Below, one piece after another: positions 12,224-33,408 of a DNA stretch of 34,175 bases (position 1 is the first letter of the stretch; every line of letters starts with the position of its first letter). The stretch lies in the NCBI GenBank assembly GCA_003517845.1, contig DOZU01000239.1, forward strand, positions 1 to 34,175, in the 5' to 3' direction. The notes beneath the pieces are model-generated. The model ran no database searches. It was not told the origin of the DNA and saw only the letters and a list, made by a program, of their open reading frames with translations. A program made the position numbers and the translations under genes. The stretch is from Clostridiales bacterium (GTDB lineage Bacteria > Bacillota > Sulfobacillia > UBA995).

Positions 12224-12381
12224 CTTTCCTCCCCCTTTGCCGGTCAGGCTCCGGAAAGACGAGCCTGACCGAGACAACGCCGCCCCGTACACGCGAGCGC
12301 GGGGCGCAGTGGACAAGCCAACGAAAAGACGAGGGCAGAGGCAAGGCCGCGCAAGCGACCGTTGCCTTTGATCGAACGGCC

Positions 12382-12531: not shown

Positions 12532-12570
12532 GGGAGTTTCCTCCTTCCCTCCTGGGGCCCCGGCCCGCCC

Positions 12571-13344: not shown

Positions 13345-13822
13345 CGGCTATGCTCCTCTCTGCCGGTCTAAGGCCGTACCGGCCCAGAAGCCAGGGCGGC
13401 AGGCTCGCAAACGGCAGCACCACCCGGGTCACGCCCGGGAACCAGTAAAACGGGCAGGCGTGGGCGCCTGGGGCGAAGTCGGCCGGGTCCTCTGTGTGAA
13501 GGACGACGGACCGCCGGGCGGCAAGCGCAGCGCCGAACTCCGTGTGGGTGCCGCGAAGACCGGGCAGCAACACAACCACCAGGTCGGCACTCACGGCGGC
13601 GTTCAGTTCCCGGGCGGCAATCCAGCCCGGGCTGCGCGCAACCGCCTCCGAATGGAGGCAGCAGGTCGTCGCAGTCCAGTCATAGGTGTGCCGCCAGCCC
13701 TGGTCGGTCAGGGCGCGGGCCAGCTCGGCAACGCGGGGGGCGTTGCCGTACCCGGACGCGATGTAAAAGCTTGGTCCGGGGGGGAGGCTTCTCGGGGTCG
13801 ATGGCGCCGCAATCATGGGCAA
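13331..13822 (-). CDS. Nucleoside 2-deoxyribosyltransferase-like (NDT/Rcl-fold) protein
   Basis: TTG 13822 lies 6 nt behind GGAGGTG. FYIASGYGN...ELNAAVSADLVVVLLPGLRGTHTEFGAALAARRSVVL fits the flavodoxin-like NDT pattern, with the conserved Glu in G-T-x-T-E-F-G. Confidence 0.6.
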   Translation of the reverse strand: MPMIAAPSTPRSLPPGPSFYIASGYGNAPRVAELARALTDQGWRHTYDWTATTCCLHSEAVARSPGWIAARELNAAVSADLVVVLLPGLRGTHTEFGAALAARRSVVLHTEDPADFAPGAHACPFYWFPGVTRVVLPFASLPPWLLGRYGLRPAERSIADAGD

Positions 13823-14495: not shown

Positions 14496-16028
14496 CTAAC
14501 GGGACCCCGCCAAAGCCTCCAGCATTTCTTCAAGAGGCTGCTGGTCGGATCCCGTGACCTGCCAGGTCCGGTCGGCGAAGGCGGCCGTGCCGCCAGGATG
14601 GTCGCCCACCCCGAAGGCAAATACGGACACGCCAGACGCGGCTTTCCAGGACTGAAAGTCCTCGAGAAAGTCGTCCGGCAAGGCGCATTCGCCGTCGGTC
14701 ACAAACAGGATGTCCGCCCGCCGGAAGGCGGGCGAGTCGGAGATTATTTGCCGCGCCCGGGCGAGCGGCGCGGCGAAGCTGGTGCCGCCGCGCCAGCCGA
14801 AGGACATGAAGTCCTCCAGCCGGGCGGGGTCGACCCCCCGGCGCCAGAAGTACTCGCGCGGGAGGTTGGCGTCGGCGCCGAACAGCAGGGACCACCAGGC
14901 CCGCCGCTCGCGGCCACATAACATGGCCATGCCCAGGCCGAGTGCCTTGGCCCAGGCAAGGCGCGACAGGCCGGCGGGACCGGGCTCGATCATGGACCCG
15001 CTGGTGTCAATGCAGACCACCACGGGGCCTTGGCCGAGCGTCTGCCGCTCTCTCACCGCATACTGGGTGAGGGAGCCCTCGGCGTAGCGCCGGCGGAACT
15101 CGCGCCGCAGCACCGGATGGCGCAGGAGCACGAGTTCGGCGGGAAGCACCCGGGCCAGGTCGCGGCCAAGTTCCAGGGAGTAGATCTCCCCGGAGCTTGA
15201 ATGCAGGATCTGCCGCCGTTTGGTCAGGCCCAGCCGGAAGATCCGGCCGGCCTGCCGCAAAGCGGCGCGCAGATCCTGGTCCTTGACCAGGTGCGCAGCC
15301 AAGGCGAGCCCTGCGCGGGCCGCCTCGGGATCGTGCCCGCCGGGGCCAGGGGACAGACCCCAGCCAGCAACCAACCGGGCGTCCTCGGCCGCGTCGGAGA
15401 CGGCCTGGCGAAGCCCCGCCCTTACGCCCCGGCCAGGCTGGCGCAGCGCTTGCTGCAGGGCCTGAACCGCGGCGCTATCGGCGGCAGCAGAGACTGCAGC
15501 GGCAGCGGCGGCCTCTTGCTCGGCCGCCTGGTACTGCTGCTGCAGGTCTTGCTGGGCGCCGTCGGGCAACTGCTCGTTCAGAAGGCCGGCCAAGCTATCG
15601 GCGTGACCGGCGGTCTGCTCAGCGGTCTCGGCGGCCTGGGCGGCCGCTTGCGAGGCGTGCTTGACTTCGTCCGGCAGCGCGTCGAGGACGCGCGGCAGGA
15701 CGCCGATAGCGGCCATGGCGGCCGCCCATTCGTCCAGTGAGGCAGCTGCGCGCAGCTCGGCCCATTCCGGGTAGCGGCGCAGCTCGGCGAGCAGCGACGC
15801 TACCGCGGCAAGGCCGGCTGCGGGCTGGGCGACGTCTTCCGGCATGAACTTGAAGCAATCGGCCCAGGTGTCCTGGGCCAAGGTGCCGCCGGAAGGGTCG
15901 CCCAGGGCCGCCTGAGCGCGGTCGACTACCGAGGCCAACTCGGGGCTGGCCTCGGTGGTATCCCGAAAGCAGCGACGGTCAAACCCGTCCGTCGCTACGA
16001 CGCCTGAGGGGAAGATGCGCCGCCTCAC
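14496..16028 (-). CDS. ViaA-like von Willebrand factor A (VWA) domain protein
   Basis: GTG 16028 overlaps the AAA+ gene stop (GTGA). C-terminal VWA domain with MIDAS VVVCIDTSGSM. Long Ala/Gln-rich helical N-terminal part. Gene order AAA+ then VWA matches ravA-viaA. Confidence 0.85.
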   Translation of the reverse strand: MRRRIFPSGVVATDGFDRRCFRDTTEASPELASVVDRAQAALGDPSGGTLAQDTWADCFKFMPEDVAQPAAGLAAVASLLAELRRYPEWAELRAAASLDEWAAAMAAIGVLPRVLDALPDEVKHASQAAAQAAETAEQTAGHADSLAGLLNEQLPDGAQQDLQQQYQAAEQEAAAAAAVSAAADSAAVQALQQALRQPGRGVRAGLRQAVSDAAEDARLVAGWGLSPGPGGHDPEAARAGLALAAHLVKDQDLRAALRQAGRIFRLGLTKRRQILHSSSGEIYSLELGRDLARVLPAELVLLRHPVLRREFRRRYAEGSLTQYAVRERQTLGQGPVVVCIDTSGSMIEPGPAGLSRLAWAKALGLGMAMLCGRERRAWWSLLFGADANLPREYFWRRGVDPARLEDFMSFGWRGGTSFAAPLARARQIISDSPAFRRADILFVTDGECALPDDFLEDFQSWKAASGVSVFAFGVGDHPGGTAAFADRTWQVTGSDQQPLEEMLEALAGSR

Positions 16029-17200
16029 GACGGCTTCACCCCCAAGACGTCGGCGAGCAGCCGGCGCAGGAGTTCGTCAACGCGCCCCTGGGAGGCGGCG
16101 CGCTGGGGCTCGAGCGAGCCGGGCAATTGCAGCCCGACCAGGCTCCCCTGGAGGCGGCGCAGCTTGGCGTGTGCCTCGACGGCGAGCTTGGAGGCTTTCG
16201 TGCGCGCCTCGGCGTCGCCGGAGACGGCCGCGGCGTGGGCCTCCAAGGCGGGAATGGCAGCCTCTTCGGCCTCTTCGGTCGCCTGGAGCAGCCGCTCCCG
16301 CAAGGGATCGGCTACCCGCCGGACCACGCCGACTACGGCGGGGCGCTGCTCGGGGGTATCCCAGAGAGCGTCGACGAGGACGTCGCCGTCGCGCTCAAGG
16401 TCGATGGCCGGGGCGCCTGCAAGCCAGGCGGCGGCCCGCAGGATCTCGACCGACCACCGCCAGCGGCGGTCGGAGGGAATGATGCCCTCCTGGCGCAGCG
16501 CCCGGCGAAGATCGGCCAGGGACGCCGCTACGGCCGGAGGGACCTCGACCTGCGCGGACTCGGCGCGGGCCTGGGCGAGGTCGCCCAGGCTCAAGCACAC
16601 CGGGTCCGGCAAGTCCCCTCCGGGATCGAGAGGGCGGCTGAGCAGCCGGGAGAAACTTGCGTCCTCCCGGATGTAGCCGACTGTGTGCCGGAGGGGCACC
16701 CGGTCGACCAGCGCCGCGAGTTCGCGGGCCTCGTCGCCCTCGGGCATCTCTGTCGAGGCCAGAAACGCCGTCCACAGCGGGACGGCGTCAAGCCGGCCGT
16801 CGTTTGCGAACAGCCGCTCGTTGAGGATCGCGAGCAGGCTGTTCAGGACGGCCGGGCTGGCCTTGGACCACTCGTCGATGAAGGCCAGGTCCGCCTCGGG
16901 GAGACGGCCGGCGGTGACGCGTTCGTAGCGGCCTTGCTCCAGAGCCGGCAAGCTCACCGGCCCGAAAAGCTCTTCGGGCACGGTGAATCGGCCTAACACG
17001 ACCTGATATAGCCGGGCGCCGCCGATGGCGGCGGTTACGGCCCGAGCAAGCTCGGACTTGGCCGTGCCCGGCGGGCCCAGCAAGAGCAAGTGCTGGCGAG
17101 ATATGAGCGCCAGCACCACGCCACGCAGCACGCCATCCCGCTCATAGAAGCGGGCGGCGAGCTGGCGGACAAGCGCGTCGAATTTTGGTCTAAGGTCCAT
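16025..17200 (-). CDS. MoxR-class AAA+ ATPase, RavA-like
   Basis: ATG 17200 lies behind GGAGGTG. Walker A LLLLGPPGTAKS. ...RFTVPEELFGPVSLPALEQGRYERVTAGRLPEADLAFIDEWSKASPAVLNSLLAILNER tracks the E. coli RavA core almost motif for motif, as recalled from memory. Confidence 0.9.
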   Translation of the reverse strand: MDLRPKFDALVRQLAARFYERDGVLRGVVLALISRQHLLLLGPPGTAKSELARAVTAAIGGARLYQVVLGRFTVPEELFGPVSLPALEQGRYERVTAGRLPEADLAFIDEWSKASPAVLNSLLAILNERLFANDGRLDAVPLWTAFLASTEMPEGDEARELAALVDRVPLRHTVGYIREDASFSRLLSRPLDPGGDLPDPVCLSLGDLAQARAESAQVEVPPAVAASLADLRRALRQEGIIPSDRRWRWSVEILRAAAWLAGAPAIDLERDGDVLVDALWDTPEQRPAVVGVVRRVADPLRERLLQATEEAEEAAIPALEAHAAAVSGDAEARTKASKLAVEAHAKLRRLQGSLVGLQLPGSLEPQRAASQGRVDELLRRLLADVLGVKPS

Positions 17201-17302
17201 CAAGCACCTCCGGGCCGCCCGGGAGGGGCGGCCGCGCGGCCAACAGACCCGGCGCAAAGAGGACGGAGCCTCCGCGCCGGGCCGCTTTGCGACCGGGGCC
17301 GG

Positions 17303-18244
17303 TCAAGCGCCGGCAGCATCCAGCGCCTGGACGACGGCGTCCCGCACGAGGCGGGCACCTTGGGCGAGATCGAAGAGATCCTGAGAGAGGACCTCTTCGT
17401 AGCTCGCGATCAGGGCCAGCACGGCCTGGGCCTCGCCGACGAGCGTGCTCAGGGCACGCTTGCCGGGCTCTTCGGCCAGGCCGGCCCGAAGGCCGGCGAG
17501 CAGGCGGGCCACGTCGTCCGCGACGGCGTCGCGGATGGTGGCCCGGGCGCCTTTCGTGTCCACCACCGGAAAGGAGGCCCAGGAAGCTTTCAAGGCTTCC
17601 TCTTGGGCCAGGGCACCGAGCCGCGCGAGTTCGTCGGCGTGCTCGGCGGGAACGAAATACACCCCCCCGGACACGCGGACGAGCACGGAGTGCAGCTCCA
17701 AGAGATACCGGCGGAACAGGCTCCGCAGAGCCTCCGCCTGATACAACCGGCGGAAGCGAGCGTAAAGCTCCTCCGCTTGCAGGCAAGCGGCCTGCACGGT
17801 CTCCCAGCCTTCGGAGTCGTAAACCCGAAGGCTCGTTGCGACCGCCGGGCCGGACGCCTGGTGGATCAGGTCGGCCGCCGGGGAGTACTCCAGGCGGCGG
17901 TTCCGGGAGTCGACAACCTCCCGGACGACCTGCCGGTAGCAGTCCCCGGCGGCGTCGACTCCTACTTCCCGCACCAGCAGGTTCATGTACCTGCCGCCGG
18001 GAAGGGCGATCCGCGACCGCTGTACGGCCGCGGTAGCCCGCCGGAAAGCATCGACGGGCTCGATGGCGCGAGGCAGAAGCGCCTCGCGGAGGGCGTGCCG
18101 GGCGAACCCGCCCATGAGGTCGTCCCGGCTTATCTCGACCTGACCTGGAACGGTGAACCAGGTCAGGTGGCCCAAGACCTCCTGGGGAGCGGCGGACGGA
18201 AAAACAGCGGCTTTTCCGTCCAGGGGCTTCGGAAGGGCGTTCAT
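17303..18244 (-). CDS. Hypothetical protein (313 aa) preceding the AAA+/VWA pair
   Basis: Lies within ORF 17303..18313. Start moved to ATG 18244 behind AAAGGAGG. Balanced composition (MNALPKPLDGKAAVFPSAAPQEVLGHLTWFTVPGQVEISRDDLMGGF...VYFVPAEHADEL...). No family recognised. Confidence 0.75.
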   Translation of the reverse strand: MNALPKPLDGKAAVFPSAAPQEVLGHLTWFTVPGQVEISRDDLMGGFARHALREALLPRAIEPVDAFRRATAAVQRSRIALPGGRYMNLLVREVGVDAAGDCYRQVVREVVDSRNRRLEYSPAADLIHQASGPAVATSLRVYDSEGWETVQAACLQAEELYARFRRLYQAEALRSLFRRYLLELHSVLVRVSGGVYFVPAEHADELARLGALAQEEALKASWASFPVVDTKGARATIRDAVADDVARLLAGLRAGLAEEPGKRALSTLVGEAQAVLALIASYEEVLSQDLFDLAQGARLVRDAVVQALDAAGA

Positions 18245-18365
18245 GCACGCCCCTCCTTTCATGGGACAAACAGCGGCCGCCGCCCAAGAACAGACGGCGG
18301 CCGCACATCGCAACCGGCGCAGAGGGAAATACCAGCCTTGCGCGCCGGCCTCTCCCCCGTCCAGT

Positions 18366-18922: not shown

Positions 18923-19462
18923 TCAGTAGGTCGCCGCCGGAGTGCAGACGGCGGGACCGCCCCGGGCCCGGAGCCGGCACGCTTCGAGGCGTGCCGACCC
19001 GGGATAGAGAGTGAGGTTGCCCATCGCCCGGGCGGCGACGGGCTTTATGTCGTCGGCGTCGCCGGCGGGGGAACCGCCGACGGGCTGCCATCCGGGTCCG
19101 ACCACCCGGAACTCCCGGAAGAGTTCCAGGCGGGTGCCCGGGGGGAACAGCCCGGCGTACCAGCCGCCCCGCCGGCACACCCAAAGGGTGCCGGCCGGGG
19201 TCTCAAGGACACGACCCTTGGCGCAGATGAAAAGCGCCTGGGGCCAAGTTCCGGCCGGCGCCGGGGCCAGCCGGAACCGCACGGGGCCGCCGGGCTCGGC
19301 TCGCCAGCCCCGGAGGAAGAACACTCCGGGGTGGGCCGGCGCGGAGCCCTCAAAGAGCAGCTCCACGTTGGCCCGGGTGAACCGGAGCCGGCCGCGGGGA
19401 CGCTCGACGATGTCCGGCCGGGCGAAGACCCGGTCGGACACCTCGACCGCAAAATCGGACAT
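18923..19462 (-). CDS. Hypothetical protein (179 aa), first gene after leader copy B
   Basis: ATG 19462 lies 6 nt behind GGGAGGTG, which is the 3' end of the leader. Product MSDFAVEVSDRVFARPDIVERPRGRLRFTRANVELLFEG... looks beta-rich. No family recognised. Confidence 0.65.
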   Translation of the reverse strand: MSDFAVEVSDRVFARPDIVERPRGRLRFTRANVELLFEGSAPAHPGVFFLRGWRAEPGGPVRFRLAPAPAGTWPQALFICAKGRVLETPAGTLWVCRRGGWYAGLFPPGTRLELFREFRVVGPGWQPVGGSPAGDADDIKPVAARAMGNLTLYPGSARLEACRLRARGGPAVCTPAATY

Positions 19463-19470
19463 CAAACCCA

Positions 19471-19628
19471 CCTCCCGCGCCCCTCAGGGGCGCTTGATAT
19501 TGCCCCTCGGGAAAAGGCGCGGGAGCACCGCGCGGGTTTTCCGGGGGGCCCTGTTGGAAGCTGACACAGGACCGGGTTAGAACCCCCGGAAACCCGCGCG
19601 CCAGCATACAACGGCTTATGGCACGCGG
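19471..19628 (-). promoter_or_regulatory. Conserved structured 5' leader / regulatory RNA element, copy B (upstream of the accessory operon)
   Basis: Second copy of 10546..10704. It differs only by one base in the CCCCU-N-AGGGG apex and by a 6-7-nt patch (GGGUUCUAACCC vs GGGUCUUUAUCCC) between the outer and inner helices. Confidence 0.55.
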
Positions 19629-19786: not shown

Positions 19787-20551
19787 TCAGCTTGAAGCGA
19801 GGCGGACGGGCTCAAGGCCGCGGCTGACGGGCCGCCAGAACTCGGCCCGGCCGTGAAATAGCGGGCCGTCCCAGGTCAGGCGGATCTCCATGCCGGATAC
19901 GCGGACCACACGGCCGAGTTCTTCGGCTTGTTCGCGGGAGCCGGCTACCAGGACGAGCACCGAGGCGATATCGGCGGAAAGACGCGCCGCGTCACGCGCC
20001 CAGTCGAGTTCGCCAGGCCACAGCCGGGCGACGAGGACGCCGAAAGGGGCGCCGGCGGAAAAGATGGCGGTCAGGCCGCCGCCGGGCTCGATCTGCACGG
20101 GAAACGGACCCCAAAGACGCCATAGCAGCATATAAAGCTGTGAGGAGGCGGCCAGACGCAAGGCGCGCAAGGGCTCCCAATCCTCGACAACGGGAGGGCC
20201 GCCCATGAGGCGGCGGCCGCACGGGCCTTCGACGTAAAGCGAGGGGATGCGGCTTGAGAGAAAGTCCAGCCGATCGGCTAAACCGCCCCGGCACATGCGC
20301 CGGAGGAGGTCGCGGACGGAGTGCACGCCTACCCCCGCCAGCTCGCCTAGCTGAGCACCGGACATGCACCGGAACCGGCGCAGGAGGCTTAATGCGGCTG
20401 CATCCGCTTCGGACACCAAAGGGCCGGGAGGCGCGAAGGCGGCCGCAGACGTGTTGGAAATTACGCGCCGAAGATGGATGCAACCGGCGGGATCGCCGCT
20501 CCAAGGGCCCCGGCCGGAAGCACGCCTCAGCGCTTCAACAGGGGTTCCCAC
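19787..20551 (-). CDS. Winged-helix protein, replication-relaxation-family-like
   Basis: GTG 20551 lies 6 nt behind GGAGGT. The N-terminal segment AALSLLRRFRCMSGAQLGELAGVGVHSVRDLLRRMCRGGLADRLDF looks like a wHTH of the Replic_Relax type. The remainder is unassigned. Confidence 0.5.
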   Translation of the reverse strand: MGTPVEALRRASGRGPWSGDPAGCIHLRRVISNTSAAAFAPPGPLVSEADAAALSLLRRFRCMSGAQLGELAGVGVHSVRDLLRRMCRGGLADRLDFLSSRIPSLYVEGPCGRRLMGGPPVVEDWEPLRALRLAASSQLYMLLWRLWGPFPVQIEPGGGLTAIFSAGAPFGVLVARLWPGELDWARDAARLSADIASVLVLVAGSREQAEELGRVVRVSGMEIRLTWDGPLFHGRAEFWRPVSRGLEPVRLASS

Positions 20552-21540
20552 GCGAAGACCTCCAACACGCGGAGCCCCATTCGCCGCTGGGACGGGTCAA
20601 GCCGCGTCACCAGAACGAGAACTTCGGCTCCGGGGATCAAGGACTGGGGGCCGGGACGCGGAGCATAGCCGGTGAGGCCGCCATCAAGCTCCACGAGATA
20701 TCCTTTGGTGGAAATCGCGCAGGCCACCCGGCCGCGATGCTTGGTGCCGGGCGGGTATAGCTCGCCGGCGCGATCCCAGGGGTCGGGCAAGAGCGGCCGC
20801 AGCGAGAGACGCAGAAATTCTTTTTCGCGGCACGCCGCTAGCACGGCGAGCTTCAAGGAGGCGCCGCGCCGGACGTAAGCGAGCTGCCGGGCGTCGGGCG
20901 CGTGCGACCAAGTCATCTCTTCAACGGGCAGCCATCCGACCAGGCCGCCGACTTCCACGCCGGCGCCGCGGCGGGAGACCCAGCGCACGCAGCCTACTAC
21001 CACGGGCGCTTCGGCGCGCTCTTGCCGGCGAAGTTCGTCTATGCGCGCCCGCAATTCGTCGGTTTCAGGCGATTTGCCGCCGTTTTCGGAGGCGATCTCC
21101 CTCAGGCGGCCGAGTGCCTGGCGAAGCTCTTCTTGGAGGACGCCGTGGCCGGCGGCTGCGGGCTCCAAAGCTTGCCAGGTGGCGGGGATGAGTTCTTCCA
21201 AGGCTTCCCGGCGCGAGAGCTGCACCTGGCCGAGCGCTCGGTCAACAGACTTGATCCGGACGAATACGGACCAGCCGATCATCTCATCGATCCGGCGGGG
21301 ACGCGGATGCCCGATCTCTCCTTCGGGGAGGTGCCCGATCACGCCGGCGCCGAACGACACGCGCAGACGGCGGCGGCCGGTGGCGGGATCGACATCGCAG
21401 CCGCTCACATCCACCCGCAAGGGCTTGCCGGACTCCAAGGCGGCCTTGAGACGACCGTAAACCTCGGCGGACTGCGCGACGCCGAGATCGACTGCAGGCC
21501 GGTGACGCACGCCTTCGTTGCGGAGCTTTACCAAGCGCAC
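20527..21540 (-). CDS. Protein with three S1-like RNA-binding (OB) domains and a central coiled-coil
   Basis: GTG 21540 lies behind AAAGGAGG. S1-type segments: RVSFGAGVIGHLPEGEIGH, GCVRWVSRRGAGVEVGGLVGWLPVEEMTW, GRVACAISTKGYLVELDGGLTGYAP. Confidence 0.7.
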   Translation of the reverse strand: MRLVKLRNEGVRHRPAVDLGVAQSAEVYGRLKAALESGKPLRVDVSGCDVDPATGRRRLRVSFGAGVIGHLPEGEIGHPRPRRIDEMIGWSVFVRIKSVDRALGQVQLSRREALEELIPATWQALEPAAAGHGVLQEELRQALGRLREIASENGGKSPETDELRARIDELRRQERAEAPVVVGCVRWVSRRGAGVEVGGLVGWLPVEEMTWSHAPDARQLAYVRRGASLKLAVLAACREKEFLRLSLRPLLPDPWDRAGELYPPGTKHRGRVACAISTKGYLVELDGGLTGYAPRPGPQSLIPGAEVLVLVTRLDPSQRRMGLRVLEVFAWEPLLKR

Positions 21541-21561
21541 GAGGATCGTCCTCCTTTTGGA

Positions 21562-21906
21562 CTAAGACACGTTCCGCCGGAGAGCGACGGGACGCTGCTG
21601 GCTGCCGGCGCAGGTCTCCAGGACGAGCGCAGGCACGGGAAGGGGTTTCCGGGGCTGAGGGCCCCGAGCACCGCGGCGGCGCGGAAACTGCCAACGGGAC
21701 GGCACGAGGGCGGGCTTCAGGATTACGGGTTCGGTAGAGACGCGGTAGACGAGGCCCGGCCAACAATCAACGAGCGAGGACACATAACGGTCCAAGTGCT
21801 CGGGATCACGATAGCCGGTGGAACAGCCGGCGAGGACTTCGACCCAGCGCAGCTCGCCGTTTACGGGCTTGAAGACGTACTGGTCGGCCCAATACACGTA
21901 AAGCAT
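21562..21906 (-). CDS. Hypothetical protein (114 aa)
   Basis: ATG 21906 lies behind AAAGGGTGA. Product MLYVYWADQYVFKPVNGELRWVEVLAGCSTGYRDPEHLDRYVSSLVDCWPGLVYRV... has normal composition in its first ~70 aa. Confidence 0.55.
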   Translation of the reverse strand: MLYVYWADQYVFKPVNGELRWVEVLAGCSTGYRDPEHLDRYVSSLVDCWPGLVYRVSTEPVILKPALVPSRWQFPRRRGARGPQPRKPLPVPALVLETCAGSQQRPVALRRNVS

Positions 21907-21912
21907 GACATG

Positions 21913-22518
21913 TCACCCTTTTTCTGGTTCATCATTGCTACAGTGCCACACGCGCTGCTCGCCGAGCGAGTGCTCGAGAGAATGGGTTATCGCGCAGGTC
22001 CACAGGCCGAAGGCGTCGGCAAGATACACGGCGGGCACGTGGTGGGCGTAAGCTTCGGCCAGGCCGACCGCAAGCCAGAGGGGCGCGAGACCGGGCAGAA
22101 AAACGGCCCGGCCAGCTCCCACGTCGGGCGGGACCAATAGGGACAAGGACACAAAACGCGGCCGGTCGGGACACACAAGCGCGCCGGGGGGACCGAAGAA
22201 CACCCGCCAGCCCAAAGGGCCGCCGCCAAAGCCGGACGGAGGAGGACAGGCCAAAAGCGCGCGCCTGGGGATCAGGCCGGGCCAGGCTAGCCGAACGGGC
22301 CGGGGACGGAAAGCGTGCGCGAGCACGGCCACGAGCCACGCGGGCGCGGGCTCGTCGATTACCAGCAGGATGCTGGCAGCGTCAGGGGCGCACTGGAAAG
22401 CACGCCGGCGCAGAGGCTCGGCCAAGCCCGCCGGGAAGAACGCGGCGGGCCCGCGGCCGCAGTCGCGGACGAGACGGGAAACATGGACGACGCTCTGCCG
22501 GCTAGACACCGGCTTCAC
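21913..22518 (-). CDS. Hypothetical protein (~200 aa), possibly membrane-associated
   Basis: Lies within ORF 21913..22668. The start is placed at GTG 22518, just after the NERD gene stop, and is uncertain because the SD is weak. The C-terminal part has high-GC3 codons and diverse residues (...VFLPGLAPLWLAVGLAEAYAHHVPAVYLADAFGLWTCAITHSLEHSLGEQRVWHCSNDEPEKG). Confidence 0.5.
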   Translation of the reverse strand: MKPVSSRQSVVHVSRLVRDCGRGPAAFFPAGLAEPLRRRAFQCAPDAASILLVIDEPAPAWLVAVLAHAFRPRPVRLAWPGLIPRRALLACPPPSGFGGGPLGWRVFFGPPGALVCPDRPRFVSLSLLVPPDVGAGRAVFLPGLAPLWLAVGLAEAYAHHVPAVYLADAFGLWTCAITHSLEHSLGEQRVWHCSNDEPEKG

Positions 22519-23257
22519 ACTTTCTTTGCGTAAAAGCACGGGCACGCCGGCGCGCGGCACGGTCGATGTCCAGCACGACGGAGCCCAAGGCCCGGGGATC
22601 CGCGACGGGACGGGCGCTCGACAGGAGAGTCGGGACGAGATCGGCGGGGTCCCAGACGACGGCGGCACCTTCGAAGGCTGCGGGCATGTCAGGACCGGGA
22701 TCGGAATCGACGAAGGCCACGGCCGGCTGCACCCATACGAAGTGCCGGCGCCGGCGAAGCTCGTTGCCGAGAGCGGCGGCCGCCGCGACCGCCTGACGGA
22801 CGGGATCGCGCATGGGGATAGCCGAGCCGGACAGCCAGCGGTACCAGCCGCCGGGGCCGCAGGCTATCTCGCCCCGCCAGCATTTGGTCTCGATGGCCCA
22901 TATGCCGGAAGGGCCGGCGATGACGTGGTCGATCTGGCGGGGACAGCCGCCGGATGAAGCCGGCACACGCACGTCGTGCAGCACGTACCAGCCGGCGGGA
23001 AGCCCGCGGCCGAGCGTGCGGGCAATGACGGCCTCGCCAAACCGGCCGGCACCCAGGATGCGGGCGCGCTCGCCGGCAAGCATGCAGGCCCAGGGGATGG
23101 CAACCAGAACGGCAAGCCACAGGAGCCAGTTCCGGAAAAGCACGTCGAGGCGCACGAACATCCACCAAGTGAAGACCAAAGGCAGGACAAACTGAAGGAA
23201 CTGCAAAGCCCAGATGCCCGGCCACAGGCGACGCCGGGGCTTGAGGATTTTGGCCAT
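22502..23257 (-). CDS. Membrane-anchored NERD (nuclease-related domain) protein
   Basis: Corresponds to the last 251 codons of ORF 22502..24319, from ATG 23257. Two N-terminal hydrophobic helices, then AGRFGEAVIARTLGRGLPAGWYVLHDVRVP...RQIDHVIAGPSGIWAIETKCWRGEI, the NERD signature. Confidence 0.8.
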   Translation of the reverse strand: MAKILKPRRRLWPGIWALQFLQFVLPLVFTWWMFVRLDVLFRNWLLWLAVLVAIPWACMLAGERARILGAGRFGEAVIARTLGRGLPAGWYVLHDVRVPASSGGCPRQIDHVIAGPSGIWAIETKCWRGEIACGPGGWYRWLSGSAIPMRDPVRQAVAAAAALGNELRRRRHFVWVQPAVAFVDSDPGPDMPAAFEGAAVVWDPADLVPTLLSSARPVADPRALGSVVLDIDRAARRRARAFTQRKCEAGV

Positions 23258-23307
23258 GCGATACCACGCTCTTTTCGAGGGGCCAAACAGCAGGCTGCCA
23301 GCGGCCG

Positions 23308-24183
23308 TCATAGAACGAATATGGCCAGCAGCCCGCAGAGGTTGAAGACAGCGTGCGCCACGACGGGCGCGTGAAGCTGGCCGGCACGCTCGTAAACGAG
23401 GGCGAACAGGACGCCGGCCAACAGAAAACGGGGCAGATGCAAGGGCGCGGGCAGGTGCAGTACGGCGAAAATCAAGGCGGACCACAGCACGGCGCGACGG
23501 CGAGCGGCAGCCGGAGGAAGGCCGCGATGCAAGCTTTGCCGCTGGAACTTCCCGAGGAAGCACTCGTAGAAACCGCGACGGAACGCAAGTTCTTCCCAGA
23601 GGGGGGCGCCGACGCAGACTACGACAAACAAAAGCGCGTGCTCGACGGTGGACAGGCCGCCGGCAAAGAGGTCCCGGACAAGGCGGGCCGCAAAGAGCGG
23701 CGCCGCAAGGAACGACGCGACGCCACCCGGCAGGAGGGAGAGCAGCCAAGAGACGGCCGCGAGCAACAGCGCGTTCACCAGGACGAAAGCGCCTATGCCC
23801 CAGAGGACGCCGAGCCAGACGGAGCGGGCAACCGAGACCCGAGGGGTCAGGACGGCTGGGATGGACGCCGCGAAGGATTCGGCCCAGAAATACAAGGGCA
23901 CGTTCATCGCGGCAAAGCCGCCCAGCCAGAAAAGGGGCGGCAGGACGGACAGGTCGCCGGCCAGGACGACACGGACGAGCGGGCCGAAGCCGCCGGACCG
24001 GACGGCAGCCACGGCCAAACCGGGCAGGGCGCCGAGGATCGCGACGAGGACCGTCCAGAACTGGATGCGCCACGCGACGCGGCGGTGGGCCCGAGGCTCG
24101 GGAAGACCGGTCGCGGCCGAAACGGGAACCTGAAACAGACGGCGCCAGAAACGGACGGAGGCAAAGGCAAATCCATGGGACAC
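23308..24183 (-). CDS. CPBP-family (CAAX/Abi-type) intramembrane glutamic protease
   Basis: Polytopic protein with the three CPBP motifs WEELAFRRG (EExxxR), FAVLH (FxxxH) and HAVFN (HxxxN). GTG 24183 lies 9 nt behind AGGAG; an alternative TTG lies at 24192. Confidence 0.85.
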   Translation of the reverse strand: MSHGFAFASVRFWRRLFQVPVSAATGLPEPRAHRRVAWRIQFWTVLVAILGALPGLAVAAVRSGGFGPLVRVVLAGDLSVLPPLFWLGGFAAMNVPLYFWAESFAASIPAVLTPRVSVARSVWLGVLWGIGAFVLVNALLLAAVSWLLSLLPGGVASFLAAPLFAARLVRDLFAGGLSTVEHALLFVVVCVGAPLWEELAFRRGFYECFLGKFQRQSLHRGLPPAAARRRAVLWSALIFAVLHLPAPLHLPRFLLAGVLFALVYERAGQLHAPVVAHAVFNLCGLLAIFVL

Positions 24184-24335
24184 GAGGATCAACTCCTACT
24201 TGCCTTGCGAACACTCGCGGGCGCCGGGACGAGGCGCCGCGACAAAAAGGCGGGACGGGAACGGACACGTGATTAAGGATAGGGAACCGGACAGGCGCTG
24301 ACCGATCAACAACCGCCATCAGTTGCCGGGAACTG

Positions 24336-24344
24336 TGGTATTAT
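24336..24344 (+). promoter_or_regulatory. Possible extended -10 promoter element for the plus-strand R-M cassette
   Basis: TGgTATTAT (TGnTATAAT-like) in the A/T-richer divergent spacer, ~200 nt upstream of ATG 24549. No good -35 element. Confidence 0.3.
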
Positions 24345-24548
24345 GGTGATGATGCTAGCGTCGAAGCTCATAGTAAACAGAACATGTCCGTTGGGGCGTA
24401 ATGTTGCCGCATGCGGCGAGGGCGTCCGCACCCAACACGCAGCCGGGCGTGCCCGAAGCAACTGTGCGAATTCAGCCGCCGCAGAACGTCATGTAATTGG
24501 GTACAGATCGCTCCCGACACGGTTCTCCCGGCAAGCCGAGGGTTGCCC

Positions 24549-26804
24549 ATGCGCGTGAGGCCACGGACTTCCGCTTCAGTGCGCTCACGGGGTTTCGCTG
24601 GTGTCGAGACGCCTCAGCTTGCGCTATCGTACCCCACACCAGAGATAATCCCCCTCGCCATTTCGCCCGGTCTCCGTGCCATTGAAAACGGCGCCTTTCC
24701 TTTTGAGACTCTGAGCAATATTGCCGAGATTGAAAGCTGGCGCAAGGAGATCAACCGGCCGCTGTACCATATCCATAAGTGGTGGGCGCAGCGTCTCGGA
24801 ACGGTATTCCGGGCAATGGTCATCGGCGCGTTTGCGCCAAAGGACGCCGATATCCTCGATCTGTTTTATGGGCCTGTGCGCATAAGCGATGCCGTCGTGT
24901 TCGATCCTTTCATGGGCAGCGGCACGACTGTCGGCGAGGCGCTCAAACTGGGTGCACGAGTCGTCGGGCGAGACATCAACCCGGTTGCCCACTTCCTCGT
25001 TAAAAACGCCTTGTCCATTCACGACCGTGTGGCCATCCTCTCGACTTTCCGCGCGATCGAAAGTGACGTTGCCGATCAGTTACGCCAGGTTTACCGAACA
25101 GTTCTTCGCGACGGTACCGAAGCCAATGTTCTCTATTTCTTCTGGGTGATGACCGCCAACTGTCCGGCCTGCGCCACGGCAGTGGATCTGTTTCCGTCTT
25201 ACATCTTCGCGCGGCACGCCTACCCCAAGAGATATCCCGAGGCGCACGCTGTCTGTCCGGAGTGCGGGGACGTCAACCGAGTTCGCAACGATGCCTGCGC
25301 GGCGACTTGCCACACGTGCCAGAGGGTTTTCGATCCGCACGCTGGCCCAGCTAACGGGCAAAAGGCGACATGTCCCTGGTGCGCGCATAGCTTTCTGATC
25401 GCAAAAACGATTCGAGGAACCGGCCGGCCGCCGAATCACCGGCTGTATGCCAAGCTGGTTCTCACACGCGAGGGCACGAAAATCTACCTGCCCGCAACGG
25501 ACGAGGATCGAGCGCTCTACCAAGAGGCGGAAGAAGCTCTAAAACAGCGCAAGAACGCCTACCCACTCGTTCCAATCGAGCCTGGCTATAACACCAACCA
25601 GGTACTTGGCTATAATTACCGCCATTGGCATGAAATGTTCAACTCGCGGCAGTTGTTGTGCCTGTCGATAACCAGCGACCGCATCAGGCAGGTGCCGGAC
25701 CCGATACTGCGAGACCTTTTCACGTGTCTGCTGTCCGGCACGCTTGAGTTCAACAACATGTTTGCTTCCTACAAGGGCGAGGGTAGCGGCGCGGTCCGAC
25801 ATATGTTTGCCCACCACATTCTCAAGCCCGAGCGCGTTCCGCTGGAAGCCAATTTTTGGGGTACACCCAAGAGTTCGGGCTCTTTCTCGACTATGTTCGA
25901 GGGGCGGATCCGGCGGGCGCTCGACTATGCTGACGCTCCGTTTGAGATTCATCCTGCTAGCAGGAATGGAAAGAAAACCAGTAGGAAATTAACCGGGCTT
26001 TCTGAGAAGATCGGTTTCGAGATTGCGGCTAGCTTCTCTGCCTTCACCGCGGGCAAGCGTGTCTATCTCTCTTGCGGGGACTCCAGCGCGACCGACCTGC
26101 CGGACCGGTCCGTCGACGCCGTTTTGACCGATCCGCCTTTCTTCGACAACGTCCATTACTCCCAACTCGCCGATTTCTTCCACGTGTGGCAGCGCCACGT
26201 CCTTGACCCTGACGGGCAGCGGTTAGCTTGCACCACCCGTTCCAGCGATGAGGTTCAGAACTGCGAAGTGGATGTATTTACGGCGCGGCTTGGCGCTGTG
26301 TGGACCGAAACTCATCGGGTACTGAAGGACGACGGCATTTTAGCCTTCACCTACCACCATTCGCGGCCGGAGGGTTGGCGGTCTGTCCTGCAAGCCTTGA
26401 TGGGGGCCGGATTTGGGATTACCGCTGTTCATCCCATCAAGTCCGAAATGTCTGTCGCAATGCCCAAGCATCAGGCTAAGGAGCCGATCGACCTTGATGT
26501 AATCATCGTCTGCCGCAAGCGCACTCAACTCCAACCATACCACTGCAACGAGGATTTGTGGGAGACGGCAACGCCTCTAGCCGTTGAACAGGTGCGCAGG
26601 TTCCGCGATTCCGGCCGGAGGCTCAGCCGGAACGATGTGCGCGTCATCGTGATGGCCCAACTGCTACGACAGCTTTCGACTTCGCACGCGGTGGAGATTG
26701 CCCTCCGCCTGCTTGATACCACAAAAGGCGAGACCGAGGCTATTATCGAGAAACTGTACACATCAGGAAAGAATCCGAGCGTGAACAAGAAGGGTGTGGG
26801 TTAA
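24549..26804 (+). CDS. Adenine-specific DNA methyltransferase with N-terminal DUF1156-like region and internal Zn-ribbon (COG1743 type)
   Basis: Lies within ORF 24411..26804. Start placed at ATG 24549. PLYHIHKWWAQRLGTVFRAMVI (DUF1156-type). Motif I DPFMGSGTTVGEALKLGARVVGRDINP. Cys pairs CPACA...CPECG...CHTCQ...CPWC. Catalytic VLTDPPFFDN. Confidence 0.9.
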   Translation: MRVRPRTSASVRSRGFAGVETPQLALSYPTPEIIPLAISPGLRAIENGAFPFETLSNIAEIESWRKEINRPLYHIHKWWAQRLGTVFRAMVIGAFAPKDADILDLFYGPVRISDAVVFDPFMGSGTTVGEALKLGARVVGRDINPVAHFLVKNALSIHDRVAILSTFRAIESDVADQLRQVYRTVLRDGTEANVLYFFWVMTANCPACATAVDLFPSYIFARHAYPKRYPEAHAVCPECGDVNRVRNDACAATCHTCQRVFDPHAGPANGQKATCPWCAHSFLIAKTIRGTGRPPNHRLYAKLVLTREGTKIYLPATDEDRALYQEAEEALKQRKNAYPLVPIEPGYNTNQVLGYNYRHWHEMFNSRQLLCLSITSDRIRQVPDPILRDLFTCLLSGTLEFNNMFASYKGEGSGAVRHMFAHHILKPERVPLEANFWGTPKSSGSFSTMFEGRIRRALDYADAPFEIHPASRNGKKTSRKLTGLSEKIGFEIAASFSAFTAGKRVYLSCGDSSATDLPDRSVDAVLTDPPFFDNVHYSQLADFFHVWQRHVLDPDGQRLACTTRSSDEVQNCEVDVFTARLGAVWTETHRVLKDDGILAFTYHHSRPEGWRSVLQALMGAGFGITAVHPIKSEMSVAMPKHQAKEPIDLDVIIVCRKRTQLQPYHCNEDLWETATPLAVEQVRRFRDSGRRLSRNDVRVIVMAQLLRQLSTSHAVEIALRLLDTTKGETEAIIEKLYTSGKNPSVNKKGVG

Positions 26805-26806
26805 TC

Positions 26807-27601
26807 TTGTCTAACGCTCTGGCCATCTTCAAGCTCTGCGTTCAAGCCATCCGCGACGGCGAGCTTATCGAACGCGAAGGGCGTACCGACAAGGAGTTCC
26901 ATTTCCAGAGTTGGTTCAGGAAACGCCTTGAAACGTTGGGGCTGCACTTCGATTTGCCTGGCCGGAATTCTTACCCGGACTTCCGCCTTGTCCGTTTTCC
27001 CGAGGGGTATGAACTCAAGGGACTGGCGTATCCGGGCCGTGAAGCCGACTACGACTGCAATAGCCAGGTTCCGTGCGGCGAACATAACGGGCGGCAGATC
27101 TATTACGTTTTTGGTCGCTACCCCAATGACCCTGACGGCAACCGCTACCCAGTACTCGACCTTGTGCTGTGCCACGGCAGTTTCCTGAATGCCGACAACA
27201 CCTACGTTCACAAGAACAAGAGCTTCCGCGGATTTGGCACCTACGGCGATATACTTGTACGCGACCGGAAGATGTACGTTGCGCCGACCCCATTTGCATT
27301 GGCCCAAGGGACAGCCCATCGGCGCACGCTCATTCTCCCGGCCGATCACCCTGCCAATGATGAATATGTCGAAGTCGGCACATTGACCCGGCGGGAGATC
27401 GATTGGGTGGTGGTCGCCTATGACTTCGATCTTCGCACGAATGAGATTGCGACAACGCACGTTCCGAACCCGAACGGCGGACGGGAGCACGTCTTCGCGG
27501 CCTATCGTGTGCAAGGAGACCCGATGGACCCTGTTTCTCTTCGCGAACGCGAGCAATCTCCCACAATTCCTGCTGGGAACGGCGAGGACGACCAAGACTA
27601 A
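26807..27601 (+). CDS. Putative type II restriction endonuclease (PD-ExK) partnered with the COG1743 methylase
   Basis: TTG 26807 lies 3 nt after the methylase stop. YPDFRLVRFPEGYELKG fits PD...E-x-K. Same lower-G+C codon style as the methylase. Confidence 0.6.
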   Translation: MSNALAIFKLCVQAIRDGELIEREGRTDKEFHFQSWFRKRLETLGLHFDLPGRNSYPDFRLVRFPEGYELKGLAYPGREADYDCNSQVPCGEHNGRQIYYVFGRYPNDPDGNRYPVLDLVLCHGSFLNADNTYVHKNKSFRGFGTYGDILVRDRKMYVAPTPFALAQGTAHRRTLILPADHPANDEYVEVGTLTRREIDWVVVAYDFDLRTNEIATTHVPNPNGGREHVFAAYRVQGDPMDPVSLREREQSPTIPAGNGEDDQD

Positions 27602-27703
27602 TTTCGCCTGAAGGGAGTTTGATTACTGGAAGACGCGGAGGCGCCACGCGGCGGCCGGGGCCGACACGGGGCGCCTCGTCACGTTCGTGGGGAACGCGCG
27701 CTG

Positions 27704-28084
27704 CTACTCGGAACGGCGCAAGGCGTGGCGCGCGTGAGCCGCGCACGGGGCGCAGAAGGCGAATCCCGAGATGTACTCAGGGCTGCCGTTACACCACCAG
27801 CAGCTACACAAGGCGCACCGCCTGGCGTCCAGCAGATCGTCGCAGCTTGGACAGATGGCGCGGTCGTCCCGAACTTTGACGGGCGGCGCGAGGACGAAGT
27901 GCTCCTCGCACGAGGGGCAGACAAACTCACCGCGCTCTTTGGCCCGGTTCAGGAGGTCCGCCAACACATCAACGTCCGGGTTCTCGTCGGCCACTGTCCG
28001 GAGGAACCCGGGCGAGACGCCGTGGACGAGCGCGTCCTTGAGCGTGTAGCCGCTTGCCTTGACTAACTTCGCTGCGATCTCCAT
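27704..28084 (-). CDS. Cys-rich zinc-ribbon protein (126 aa)
   Basis: Lies within ORF 27704..28537. Start moved to ATG 28084 behind AAGGGGG. Cys motifs CPSCEE...CPSCDD...CALCSCWWC...CAPC. Confidence 0.6.
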   Translation of the reverse strand: MEIAAKLVKASGYTLKDALVHGVSPGFLRTVADENPDVDVLADLLNRAKERGEFVCPSCEEHFVLAPPVKVRDDRAICPSCDDLLDARRCALCSCWWCNGSPEYISGFAFCAPCAAHARHALRRSE

Positions 28085-28410
28085 AAACGCCCCCTTTCCA
28101 CCTTCACCGCCGGGACGAGCCGCGGCGGAACAACAGATCCTACCCCGGCAACGGACCGGCGCTGGCTCGGCGGCCTTTGGACCGCCTTCTTCGAGGCGAA
28201 ACGCGAGAAGGCGGACGCAGACATTAAGAGGAGTGCGCCGCATGAGCACCCACTCTCCCTCACAGGACGGGCCCGCTCGGTAAATCCGTCCTCCCTGCAA
28301 CGCTCTACCGCTTTCCGGGGCCGGTGCTCCCGGCTCCGACAAGAACGCGCGCACGGCAACGTGGAGGAACCGCGCGCCGGGGTGCTGCCAGCAGAAAAAA
28401 GCAGGCACGG

Positions 28411-33356: not shown

Positions 33357-33408
33357 GAAGGCCAACCCTCCTTCGCGGGAGCAAGAGTGCGCTCGCGGCC
33401 GAACACGG

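Follow-up and report, generated by a model that had tools for sequence, protein, structure and literature searches.

A CPBP protease, a NERD nuclease-like protein and an extended Csx3-family protein in one plasmid cargo block: a possible conflict cassette

Four adjacent minus-strand genes on a plasmid-like contig raise the question of whether their products act together in a conflict between mobile DNA and its host, or are functionally unrelated cargo. In an initial annotation of the window (the whole stretch of 34,175 nt analysed here) they were described as an operon and a candidate defence or abortive-infection module, divergent from a lower-G+C restriction-modification (R-M) cassette. All four ORFs were found at 21562–24183; their third-position G+C is high (0.76–0.80) and their dN/dS against a relative is below 1 in every case (0.26–0.61). 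The features referred to in the text, including comparisons with two related lineages, L001 and L002, are the following.

19787–20551, minus strand: 254-aa protein with a weak Replic_Relax/wHTH match (Pfam PF13814, E 0.004, below the cut-off)
20527–21540, minus strand: S1-repeat RNA-binding protein, 337 aa (NCBIfam rpsA-type S1 repeats, E 5e-20)
21562–21906, minus strand: 114-aa protein of no known family, with orthologues in L001 and L002 (gene 4)
21913–22509, minus strand: extended two-lobed Csx3/Crn3-family protein, 198 aa, as assigned from Pfam, profile and AF2 model (gene 3)
22502–23257, minus strand: membrane-anchored NERD (PD-(D/E)xK-type) nuclease-like protein, 251 aa (Pfam PF08378)
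23308–24183, minus strand: CPBP (Rce1-like/'Abi') glutamic intramembrane protease, 291 aa (Pfam PF02517)
24184–24242, minus strand: 59-nt conserved leader preceding the CPBP gene and containing the RBS AGGAG at 24193–24197
24243–27718, no strand: lineage-specific insertion of 3476 bp, 57% G+C, absent in L001 and L002
24411–26804, plus strand: DNA methyltransferase (Pfam N6_N4_Mtase, PADLOC MTase_II)
26807–27601, plus strand: 264-aa gene within the R-M insertion

The tight co-directional arrangement was confirmed, the genes from CPBP to gene 4 being separated by a 50-nt gap, an overlap between the NERD gene and gene 3, and a 6-nt gap. The CPBP gene starts with GTG, with AGGAG 9 nt upstream. For the NERD gene, a start at 23311 in an ATGA-coupled overlap was rejected in favour of ATG 23257, since the N-terminal sequence MAKILKPRRR is common to all orthologues. 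The start of gene 3 falls on the NERD stop, an arrangement suggestive of translational coupling; an alternative GTG start at 22518 would yield a protein of 201 aa. The S1 gene starts 21 nt beyond the end of gene 4, has its own RBS and overlaps the following 254-aa backbone gene by 25 nt, and no terminator-like site was detected between 24183 and 19787; the transcription unit therefore probably extends past 21562, with the S1 and 254-aa genes co-transcribed with the block and the latter as the last gene. Terminator-like sites were not more frequent than in shuffled sequence, a promoter scan gave no sigma-70-type site, and nothing was returned by an Rfam scan for RNA elements. A 170-bp repeated element follows the 254-aa gene, and the minus-strand gene array spans ~24.2 kb to ~3.9 kb.

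That the first gene encodes a CPBP protein with three catalytic motifs was found to hold: the product matches PF02517 with 59.1 bits (gathering cut-off 22.4, E 5e-16), has about seven hydrophobic segments as judged from hydropathy, and carries intact EELAFR (197–202), FAVLH (239–243) and HAVFN (277–281) motifs, all of which also occur in the L001 and L002 orthologues (three orthologues including that of the window). The label 'Abi-type' used in the initial annotation is just the historical Pfam name for CPBP proteases and has no bearing on abortive infection. The protein shares the three catalytic motifs and the multi-TM character with Rce1-like, bacteriocin-immunity, MroQ and myxosortase/MrtJ proteases of the CPBP/'Abi' group but, unlike these relatives, has no bacteriocin, sorting-signal substrate or quorum-peptide gene nearby. 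It also differs from the named members in falling below every NCBIfam equivalog cut-off, its matches there being domain-level ones to pepcterm_CAAX, MrtJ and the myxosortase core; PADLOC returned no match for it. A function as sorting protease was considered and rejected, as none of the window proteins has the C-terminal TM segment plus basic tail of a substrate.

The second product is, as initially described, a NERD protein with two N-terminal TM helices. Its match to PF08378 reaches 75.3 bits (cut-off 22.1, E 7e-21), and the N-terminus is basic and contains two hydrophobic, Trp-rich segments, from which a cytoplasmic orientation of the NERD domain is predicted. The D-ExK signature (IDHV at 109 and IETK at 122 in the 251-aa numbering) is invariant in three orthologues, with residues D110, E123 and K125 all present. 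PADLOC matched only the NERD part of PglW (E 7e-6) and MkoA, and NCBIfam MAD6 aligned over the NERD domain only (E 3e-13). The domain is thus homologous to that of PglW (BREX/Pgl) and MAD6 (MADS); in contrast to these, it stands here without a kinase, helicase or other fused domain and is preceded by two TM segments, and none of the partner genes of the PglW and MAD6 systems is found at the locus.

The third product, previously regarded as a partly hydrophobic unknown of ~200 aa, has to be re-described, since sequence and model comparisons place it in the Csx3/Crn3 family and fold and the AF2 model is that of a soluble alpha/beta protein. It scores 22.6 bits against Pfam Cas_csx3 (PF09620; gathering threshold 21) and matches only the Csx3 and AAA-Csx3 models of PADLOC, while its 18.8 bits against NCBIfam TIGR02579 lie below the equivalog cut-off of 55.4. 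An HMMER search over 1.84e9 proteins gave 61 relatives; Cas_csx3 is matched by 61 of the 62 aligned sequences (60 of the 61 relatives and the window protein; best E 1e-25), and the family profile aligned with the whole AfCsx3 chain in the PDB (E 1e-19). The AF2 model, built from an 8-sequence alignment, has a pLDDT of 80.5 and a pTM of 0.82; a model from a 2-sequence alignment (pLDDT 46) was discarded. The top 11 Foldseek matches in the PDB are all AfCsx3 (probability 1.00), with an rmsd of 2.3–3.0 Å for ten of them and 4.5 Å for 3wzg_B, and TM-scores normalised to AfCsx3 of 0.66–0.73; two-lobed SAVED sensors show a weaker, whole-length resemblance. Gene 3 differs from AfCsx3 by ~100 additional N-terminal residues, which form a second lobe repeating the beta-alpha core (lobe 1 against the canonical part: hhalign 93%).

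AfCsx3 (Crn3/Csx3 of type III CRISPR; PDB 3WZI/6YUD/6VJG) was compared residue by residue, the residues being those given in PMC7371418 and mapped by alignment, not by the structure of a complex. Equivalents of G45, P48, W50, L51, Y59, H60, H61 and H80 are kept, among them the ring-nuclease residues H60 (H159) and H80 (H179) and the cA4 contact G45 (G143). D69 corresponds to D168 in the window and L001 only, and is Gly in L002 and Gln in most family members. Four further positions are replaced (H57 by E155, R71 by F170, S44 by P142 and R46 by L144), and the cA4-binding motif SGR reads PGL, so that the ring-nuclease and cA4-contact set (H57, H60, H80, D69, R71; S44, G45, R46) is incomplete. Because the positions of S44, R46, H57 and R71 are replaced, ligand binding by this protein is uncertain. 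Lobe 1 of the family carries a near-invariant His, at which position the window protein and that of L001 have Arg. Also unlike AfCsx3, the gene is plasmid-borne, the scanned window ORFs include no cas domain, and neither a repeat array nor a CRISPR array occurs in the window. Among the 61 relatives none carries a NERD fusion; some are fused to HD, PemK, AAA or DUF4116 domains, those with HD, PemK or DUF4116 being long multidomain proteins.

Gene 4 has no match in Pfam, PADLOC, PHROGs, NCBIfam or the PDB. It is 93% identical to its orthologue in L001 and 56% to that in L002; conservation covers the N-terminal ~65 aa, followed by a variable, Arg/Pro-rich tail, and no TM segment is present.

The element carrying the block is conjugative plasmid-like and probably of Bacillota origin. 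The same contig encodes a coupling protein (T4CP) with TrwB/TraG domains, a ParM-like ALP_N protein for partition, Tad genes and replication-type genes (PolA, a DUF3854/primase-type protein, a PD-(D/E)XK nuclease and a DnaN N-terminal domain); no relaxase or oriT was identified on the element. Relatives of the T4CP occur in 431 plasmids, nearly all from Bacillota, and in the distantly related Brevibacillus plasmids an S1 homologue directly follows the T4CP. From this gene order the four-gene block is seen to be cargo, placed in an accessory stretch of the conjugative-plasmid backbone to which the S1 gene (98.5% protein identity to its L001 counterpart) belongs. A second intramembrane protease, a rhomboid, is also encoded on the element, as are surface and pilus genes (SLH, Tad).

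In nucleotide comparisons the block behaves as one evolutionary unit with sharp divergence edges at both ends. Identity to L001 is 89–95% across 21549–24242 as against 96–99% in both flanks, and dS is 0.08–0.22 in the block as against 0.02–0.05 for the S1 and 254-aa genes; the BLASTN matches of L001 and L002 with the window begin at 24242 and 24246, respectively. The order CPBP-NERD-Csx3-gene 4 is kept in three lineages, down to 56–61% protein identity. These lineages belong to one plasmid family in which the whole region is syntenic, and such synteny is not independent evidence for functional linkage. The proposed test of CPBP-NERD co-occurrence in other genomes went against the module, the CPBP-NERD-Csx3 adjacency having been seen only in the three lineages and being absent at the seven nearest NERD relatives in other genomes and at four distant Csx3 loci; CPBP-NERD adjacency is likewise absent at a Bacillus plasmid NERD gene. 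Distant NERD relatives lie in housekeeping-looking chromosomal contexts, and next to the distant Csx3 relatives neither a NERD nor a CPBP gene is present. Word-indexed protein searches returned only the window's own lineage, a megablast of 11 kb against plasmids gave nothing informative, and tblastn of the CPBP and S1 proteins against plasmids and phages, as well as two JGI metagenome scans for the block or its parts, were empty or uninformative. A phage origin was considered and rejected: the PHROGs search gave just two weak matches, both to families without an assigned function, and no relatives turned up in three IMG/VR scans.

The divergent neighbour had been taken for a sign of a defence island. 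A lower-G+C R-M cassette is indeed present (57%), but it is a one-lineage insertion without conservation: it is missing from L001 and L002, which include a 94%-identical relative, takes the place of 181 bp present in L001, and has a repeat of ~16–17 nt on either side (24225–24241 and 27667–27683). Just upstream of the CPBP gene, one lineage has acquired the R-M cassette and another lineage different genes, among them one for a PilZ protein. By these comparisons the R-M neighbour arrived recently and is not a conserved defence-island partner.

The four genes make up a single accessory unit and probably have a part in conflicts between mobile DNA and host. PADLOC, suggested at the outset as a check on the defence module, found no system model (PADLOC-DB v2) matched by the component proteins, and no signal-making enzyme (Cas10, CD-NTase or other cyclase) is encoded in the window. 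The Csx3 fold of gene 3, related to cyclic-oligoadenylate (cOA) binding, provides the sensor-effector idea with a concrete candidate sensor that the initial annotation had missed, and by analogy the recurrence of NERD domains in the defence proteins PglW and MAD6 counts for a conflict reading. The preferred reading, given a probability of about 0.3, takes the block for a conflict cassette, with a membrane nuclease linked to a Csx3-like protein as the sensor of a ligand; it implies that the proteins would act jointly, that gene 3 would bind a nucleotide signal, and that the nuclease would be an effector directed at incoming phage or competing mobile DNA. Such a cassette would have been inserted, in the same orientation, between the T4CP and S1 genes of a Tad/ParM-type conjugative plasmid. 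Its effector would be an inner-membrane-anchored NERD nuclease with the catalytic domain in the cytoplasm, and the extended Csx3-like protein might be the ligand-binding regulatory subunit that senses a cyclic oligonucleotide or an RNA 3' end.

The NERD and Csx3-like pair could then be a split, membrane-tethered counterpart of the fused sensor-nuclease effectors Can2/Card1 (CARF plus PD-(D/E)xK, activated by cA4), in which a cyclic-oligoadenylate-type fold is likewise paired with a nuclease of the PD-(D/E)xK superfamily. In contrast to Can2/Card1, where CARF is fused to the nuclease, there are two polypeptides here, the putative sensor is Csx3-like, the NERD protein is membrane-anchored, the context is not CRISPR, and activation is only proposed. 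With the ring nucleases of mobile elements (AcrIII-1/DUF1874 and the viral SAVED AcrIII-2), gene 3 shares a stand-alone cOA-binding fold on a mobile element without a cyclase, and differs from them in fold family, in its incomplete catalytic set and in lying in a four-gene block with membrane proteins. The CPBP and 114-aa proteins might be membrane and cytosolic partners that process the anchor of the nuclease, release it, or serve self-protection; for CPBP any such role is pure conjecture. A more specific version, in which a pseudo-dimeric, SAVED-like Csx3 sensor gates the plasmid-borne, membrane-tethered NERD nuclease while CPBP controls its anchoring or release, is improbable; the plasmid would in that case eavesdrop on cyclic-oligonucleotide signals of host or phage, or sense their removal, and the effector, undescribed so far, would be the first with a Csx3 fold in the place of CARF or SAVED.

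It is quite possible, if tentatively so, that the genes form no system at all and are functionally unrelated cargo or maintenance genes in one long transcription unit, such as a protease for membrane-protein maturation, a membrane-bound nuclease that serves exclusion or processes DNA, and an RNA-binding protein that acts alongside S1. Co-directional packing is common among plasmid genes and the long minus-strand array fits it, as does the continuity of the block with the S1 and 254-aa genes; each domain family is found elsewhere without the others, the nearest NCBIfam models of the CPBP protein are sorting-type proteases, and a rhomboid protease is encoded on the element together with SLH/Tad surface or pilus genes. 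Against this stand the shared, sharp divergence boundaries around exactly four genes, the NERD/gene 3 start-stop overlap with 6-nt spacing to gene 4, and the lack of a C-terminal sorting signal in the window proteins on which a sorting protease could act. Because the element is a plasmid, anti-defence is a live alternative to defence, although a rather doubtful one: a Csx3-like ring nuclease or sponge would remove the cOA of a recipient's type III CRISPR (or related) system at plasmid entry, its neighbours having separate establishment or competition functions. Binding and cleavage of cA4 is the sole activity demonstrated for Csx3/Crn3 (PMC7371418), ring nucleases of viruses and plasmids have been reported as anti-CRISPRs (PMC13148439), and the leading regions of plasmids harbour clusters of anti-defence genes (PMC11541004). 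Gene 3, moreover, adjoins the T4CP region of a conjugative element and stands alone there, unaccompanied by cas genes or a cyclase; it keeps the H60 and H80 equivalents, and one relative lies on a large-phage-like contig, others being fused to HD, PemK or DUF4116. These points are countered by the loss of AfCsx3 essentials (R71, H57 and SGR) and the variation at D69 and the lobe-1 His described above, by the absence of Crn3 from 28,114 phage genomes surveyed (PMC12409355), by the lack of any significant structural match among viral models (BFVD) and of any tblastn match of a family member in plasmid and phage collections, and by the fact that oriT and leading region were not located on this DNA. 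Anti-defence also leaves the coupling to a membrane nuclease and the unit-like divergence of four genes unexplained.

Exclusion and addiction genes typically vary among otherwise near-identical plasmids, as this block does, and the membrane nuclease could be a toxin curbed by a small partner for plasmid stability, or could degrade the entering DNA of related plasmids. The predicted membrane anchor, the apparently intact active site and the translationally linked small downstream partners agree with this, but no toxin-antitoxin or exclusion-protein similarity was found in Pfam, NCBIfam or PADLOC, and four genes including a protease would be an atypical layout for either type of module. Addiction or exclusion is an unlikely reading.

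To our knowledge, Csx3/Crn3 is known solely as a CRISPR-linked off-switch enzyme for cyclic tetra-adenylate signalling, whereas here an extended member of the family occurs on a conjugative plasmid, in a fast-diverging cargo slot and with no CRISPR genes in the window. If the genes act together, they would represent a new sensor-effector architecture for nucleotide-based immunity, or a new plasmid counter-measure against such immunity; the extended Csx3 module (61 clusters in 1.84 billion proteins) would gain a testable role. If they do not act together, the locus is ordinary plasmid cargo. The large-phage-like contig that carries one of the gene 3 relatives also contains 18 tRNA genes, ThyA and DHFR.

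Four co-directional ORFs occupy the minus strand between 21562 and 24183, within a long array of minus-strand genes in a window of ~68% G+C. Since third-position G+C is high in all four and dN/dS against a relative is 0.26–0.61, they are real genes. These ORFs and the features surrounding them are listed below.

Genes of the four-gene block and adjoining features of the element
23308–24183, minus strand: CPBP protease, 291 aa; GTG start with AGGAG 9 nt 5′; Pfam Rce1-like (CPBP), E 5e-16
start ATG 23257, minus strand: NERD protein, 251 aa; Pfam E 7e-21; IDHV and IETK signatures
21913–22509 (or 22518), minus strand: gene 3; start overlaps the NERD stop codon
21562–21906, minus strand: gene 4, 114 aa; 6 nt after gene 3
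20527–21540, minus strand: S1-repeat protein; begins 21 nt beyond gene 4, strong RBS
19787–20551, minus strand: g254, a 254-aa protein; overlaps the S1 gene
24243–27718: insertion with a methyltransferase and a 264-aa gene; 3476 bp, 57% G+C; replaces 181 bp of the 94%-identical relative L001
30047–32020: T4CP, a TrwB/TraG-type coupling protein

The CPBP protein, by sequence an intact glutamic intramembrane protease, has about seven hydrophobic segments and, as the initial annotation had noted, all three catalytic motifs (EELAFR at 197–202, FAVLH at 239–243 and HAVFN at 277–281). All NERD orthologues begin with MAKILKPRRR, so that the start of this gene is ATG 23257, 50 nt past the CPBP stop; an ATGA overlap at 23311 was ruled out as the start by this common N-terminus. 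The basic N-terminus is followed by two Trp-rich hydrophobic segments, in agreement with the two N-terminal TM segments described earlier, and the intact, membrane-anchored PD-(D/E)xK-type nuclease domain is predicted to lie on the cytoplasmic side. The product of gene 4 is small and soluble and ends in a basic tail. The transcription unit probably consists of six genes, from CPBP to g254, and not of the four assigned to the operon in the initial annotation, because no terminator-like site was found within 24183–19787, the S1 and g254 genes are closely packed, and a repeat follows g254. This ~170-bp direct repeat (19458–19628) has a second copy at 10533–10704 (91–100% identical). Each copy lies just 5′ of a minus-strand gene start (19471 and 10532) and resembles a promoter or 5′ region that has been duplicated; the copy after g254 marks the end of the unit.

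The third gene, of ~200 aa and previously regarded as unknown, belongs to the Csx3/Crn3 family. It scores just above the Pfam Cas_csx3 threshold (22.6 bits versus 21) and is also matched by the PADLOC Csx3 and AAA-Csx3 models. When the window protein was combined with its 58%-identical orthologue in a profile, a search of 1.84 billion representative proteins recovered 61 relatives; of the 62 sequences in the alignment, 61 matched Cas_csx3 (60 relatives and the window protein; best E 1e-25). Searched against the PDB, a profile of 23 family members matched the full chain of the Csx3/Crn3 protein AfCsx3 with an E-value of 1e-19. An AlphaFold model from an 8-sequence alignment (pLDDT 80.5, pTM 0.82) gave AfCsx3/Crn3 as all of the top 11 Foldseek matches in the PDB (probability 1.00), ten of them with rmsd 2.3–3.0 Å and TM-scores of 0.66–0.73 on the target, and 3wzg_B with 4.5 Å; two-lobed SAVED sensors followed as weaker whole-length matches. 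The ~100 residues preceding the canonical domain in this family repeat its beta-alpha core ('GxAPAWL...H..HP'), and the N-terminal lobe aligned with the canonical part by hhalign at 93% probability (E 3e-7). Membership in the Csx3 fold is solid, and the product is modelled as a soluble two-lobed protein, translationally linked to the nuclease.

In AfCsx3, residues H57, H60, H80, D69 and R71 are important for cA4 cleavage, with S44, G45 and R46 as contacts (PMC7371418). When the window protein was mapped onto AfCsx3, the equivalents of H60, H61, H80 and G45 were found to be kept, and that of D69 is kept in the window and L001 only. Glu replaces H57, Phe R71, Pro S44 and Leu R46, and the near-invariant histidine of lobe 1 in the family is an arginine here. 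Ring-nuclease competence is therefore doubtful. Among Csx3-family members there are fusions to HD, PemK, AAA and DUF4116, and none to NERD. Little attention has been given to this extended Csx3 module of mobile elements, which is independent of CRISPR.

Comparison with related elements indicates that the block has its own history. Protein identity to L001 is 89–93% for the four block genes versus 98–98.5% for T4CP, S1 and g254, and the corresponding values for L002, of a more distant lineage, are 56–61% versus 70–74%. Measured in 300-nt windows, the segment 24242–21549 is 89–95% identical to L001 in nucleotides, against 97.7–99.3% for 21548–19589 and mostly 96–98% across T4CP; synonymous divergence is 0.08–0.22 in the block versus 0.02–0.05 for S1 and g254. 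These differences point to recombinational exchange, faster evolution or both, and the edges of the divergent segment coincide with the limits of the block as first drawn. Two other stretches also diverge strongly from L001 amid 96–98% identical sequence, 33278–33577 (71%) and 27917–28186 (86%), falling in genes for 364 and 126 aa.

The lower-G+C neighbour taken initially as an R-M cassette back-to-back with the operon is present, but it is a recent insertion, bounded by a ~16–17-nt repeat (GGCGCCYCGTSYCGGC-like; arms 24225–24241 and 27667–27683). No family match was found for its 264-aa gene, which is assumed to be the restriction enzyme. L001, 94% identical at the nucleotide level, lacks the R-M genes; there, T4CP is followed by four small genes and then by CPBP, NERD, gene 3, gene 4 and S1. 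At the same position, L002/L003 carries other genes, including one for a PilZ protein; in L002, a 57–61%-identical relative, this PilZ-domain gene (c-di-GMP receptor type; 2688–3275) lies directly 5′ of the CPBP gene. Homology to the window starts at 24242–24246 in both L001 and L002, 59–63 nt ahead of the CPBP start. Cargo is thus exchanged at a boundary just 5′ of this gene, and the R-M genes became its neighbours recently. Complete Brevibacillus marinus and B. laterosporus plasmids have, immediately after T4CP, a gene for an S1-repeat protein equal in size to that of the window, and then one for a ~230-aa hypothetical protein, all three being contiguous (L025 15229–18561; L027 8893–12694). 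From this gene order, the S1 protein looks to be a conserved companion of T4CP in this plasmid family. Over the C-terminal half, the Brevibacillus S1 protein is 30% identical to that of the window (E 6e-16). In the window lineage, T4CP and S1 are instead separated by ~8.5 kb containing three unknowns, the R-M cassette and the block itself, so that the latter is cargo in an accessory slot outside the wider backbone.

The combination of CPBP, NERD, gene 3 and gene 4 was found in three lineages only, all of one plasmid family. The co-occurrence tests were small, covering seven NERD relatives, one Bacillus plasmid NERD gene and four distant Csx3-family members. At the loci of the seven nearest other NERD relatives (34–49% identity; Akkermansia, Kiritimatiellia and Lentisphaerales MAGs and one 'uncultured bacterium' MAG), BLASTP detected no CPBP, Csx3, gene-4, S1 or g254 homologue. 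The Bacillus plasmid gene was likewise without these neighbours, and the four extended-Csx3 members had no NERD or CPBP neighbour. One of these four, P0059, lies on a contig (L017; 3634–5867 and 6925–7524) that carries 18 tRNA genes in an array and also encodes thymidylate synthase, DHFR and an HNH endonuclease, a gene content typical of large phages. Outside plasmids, the NERD protein is closest to the TM-NERD genes of L009–L012, L014 and L015, from Akkermansia, Kiritimatiellia and Lentisphaerales MAGs, and neighbouring ORF sizes are alike across L009–L012. Pfam scans of three NERD loci identified ABC-transporter auxiliary and DUF4340 genes 5′ and a tail-specific protease followed by DapF 3′ in L011 (e.g. 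5681–13655), a tail-specific protease 3′ in L014, and a glycosyltransferase 5′ in L013, where the tail-specific protease is absent; the neighbours in L011 and L014 hint at a housekeeping role for this TM-NERD subfamily.

With these corrections the original observation stands. Every domain of the block is in a known family; the combination and its plasmid setting are undescribed in the libraries and literature searched. PADLOC recognised no system for the block, and a full-text search returned no paper naming CPBP together with NERD. A defence function is possible, and two supports offered for it, the 'Abi' name and the R-M neighbour, are weak. The Csx3-like protein may be a ligand-binding regulator of the NERD nuclease, in which case the two would form a split, membrane-tethered analogue of Can2/Card1, where sensor and nuclease are fused. 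The cassette would target incoming phage or competing mobile DNA; possible tasks of CPBP are to process or anchor the nuclease or to shield the cell. Taken jointly, these proposals are tentative, with a probability of about 0.3; what such a conflict module chiefly lacks is a signal generator, and its ligand-contact residues are degenerate.

Gene 3 could alternatively serve anti-defence, its product acting on type III CRISPR signalling as a plasmid-encoded ring nuclease or as a sponge. The sole known activity of the Csx3/Crn3 family and the mobile-element context speak for this reading, and the replaced catalytic residues and the coupling to membrane proteins speak against it; on balance it is unlikely. 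Four functionally unrelated genes may also share one plasmid operon, a reading hardly less probable than that of a regulated nuclease. The block-specific divergence, a unit-like evolution within a cargo slot of the plasmid, is what argues most strongly in these data for the four belonging together. An addiction or exclusion module is distinctly improbable. The locus itself is specific and open to testing, has an unexpected link to Csx3, and is known, from sequence and models, in one plasmid lineage only.

The element is conjugative plasmid-like. Relatives of T4CP occur in 431 PLSDB plasmids, nearly all from Bacillota, and one relative of the element was binned in an unclassified Bacillota MAG. 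Further window genes encode PolA, a PD-(D/E)XK nuclease, a DUF3854/primase-type protein and a rhomboid protease, and the same 66-kb ENA contig (ERZ3623435 NODE_18) also encodes a ParM-like ALP_N protein, Tad and SLH proteins and RNase H. The rhomboid, a second intramembrane protease on the element, and an adjoining short ORF (5594–6337 and 6334–6792) sit between the PolA and PD-(D/E)XK genes, the match of the short ORF being limited to the N-terminal domain of the DNA polymerase III beta clamp (DnaN). Side by side at 14496–18313 are genes for a bpMoxR AAA+ ATPase and for VWA and DUF6744 proteins, an arrangement kept in L002. This trio is a ternary system of the MoxR-vWA type; such systems have been proposed as NTP-dependent conflict systems. 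A second methyltransferase (718–2226; Eco57I/TaqI-type N6) at the left end of the window lies in another lower-G+C segment (~60%; ~1000–3500), which points to the acquisition of a second cassette, for modification or R-M. Two 46-nt direct repeats, 149 nt apart (33869–33914 and 34018–34063), lie close to the RNase H gene and are shared with L001; they could be iteron- or oriT-like.
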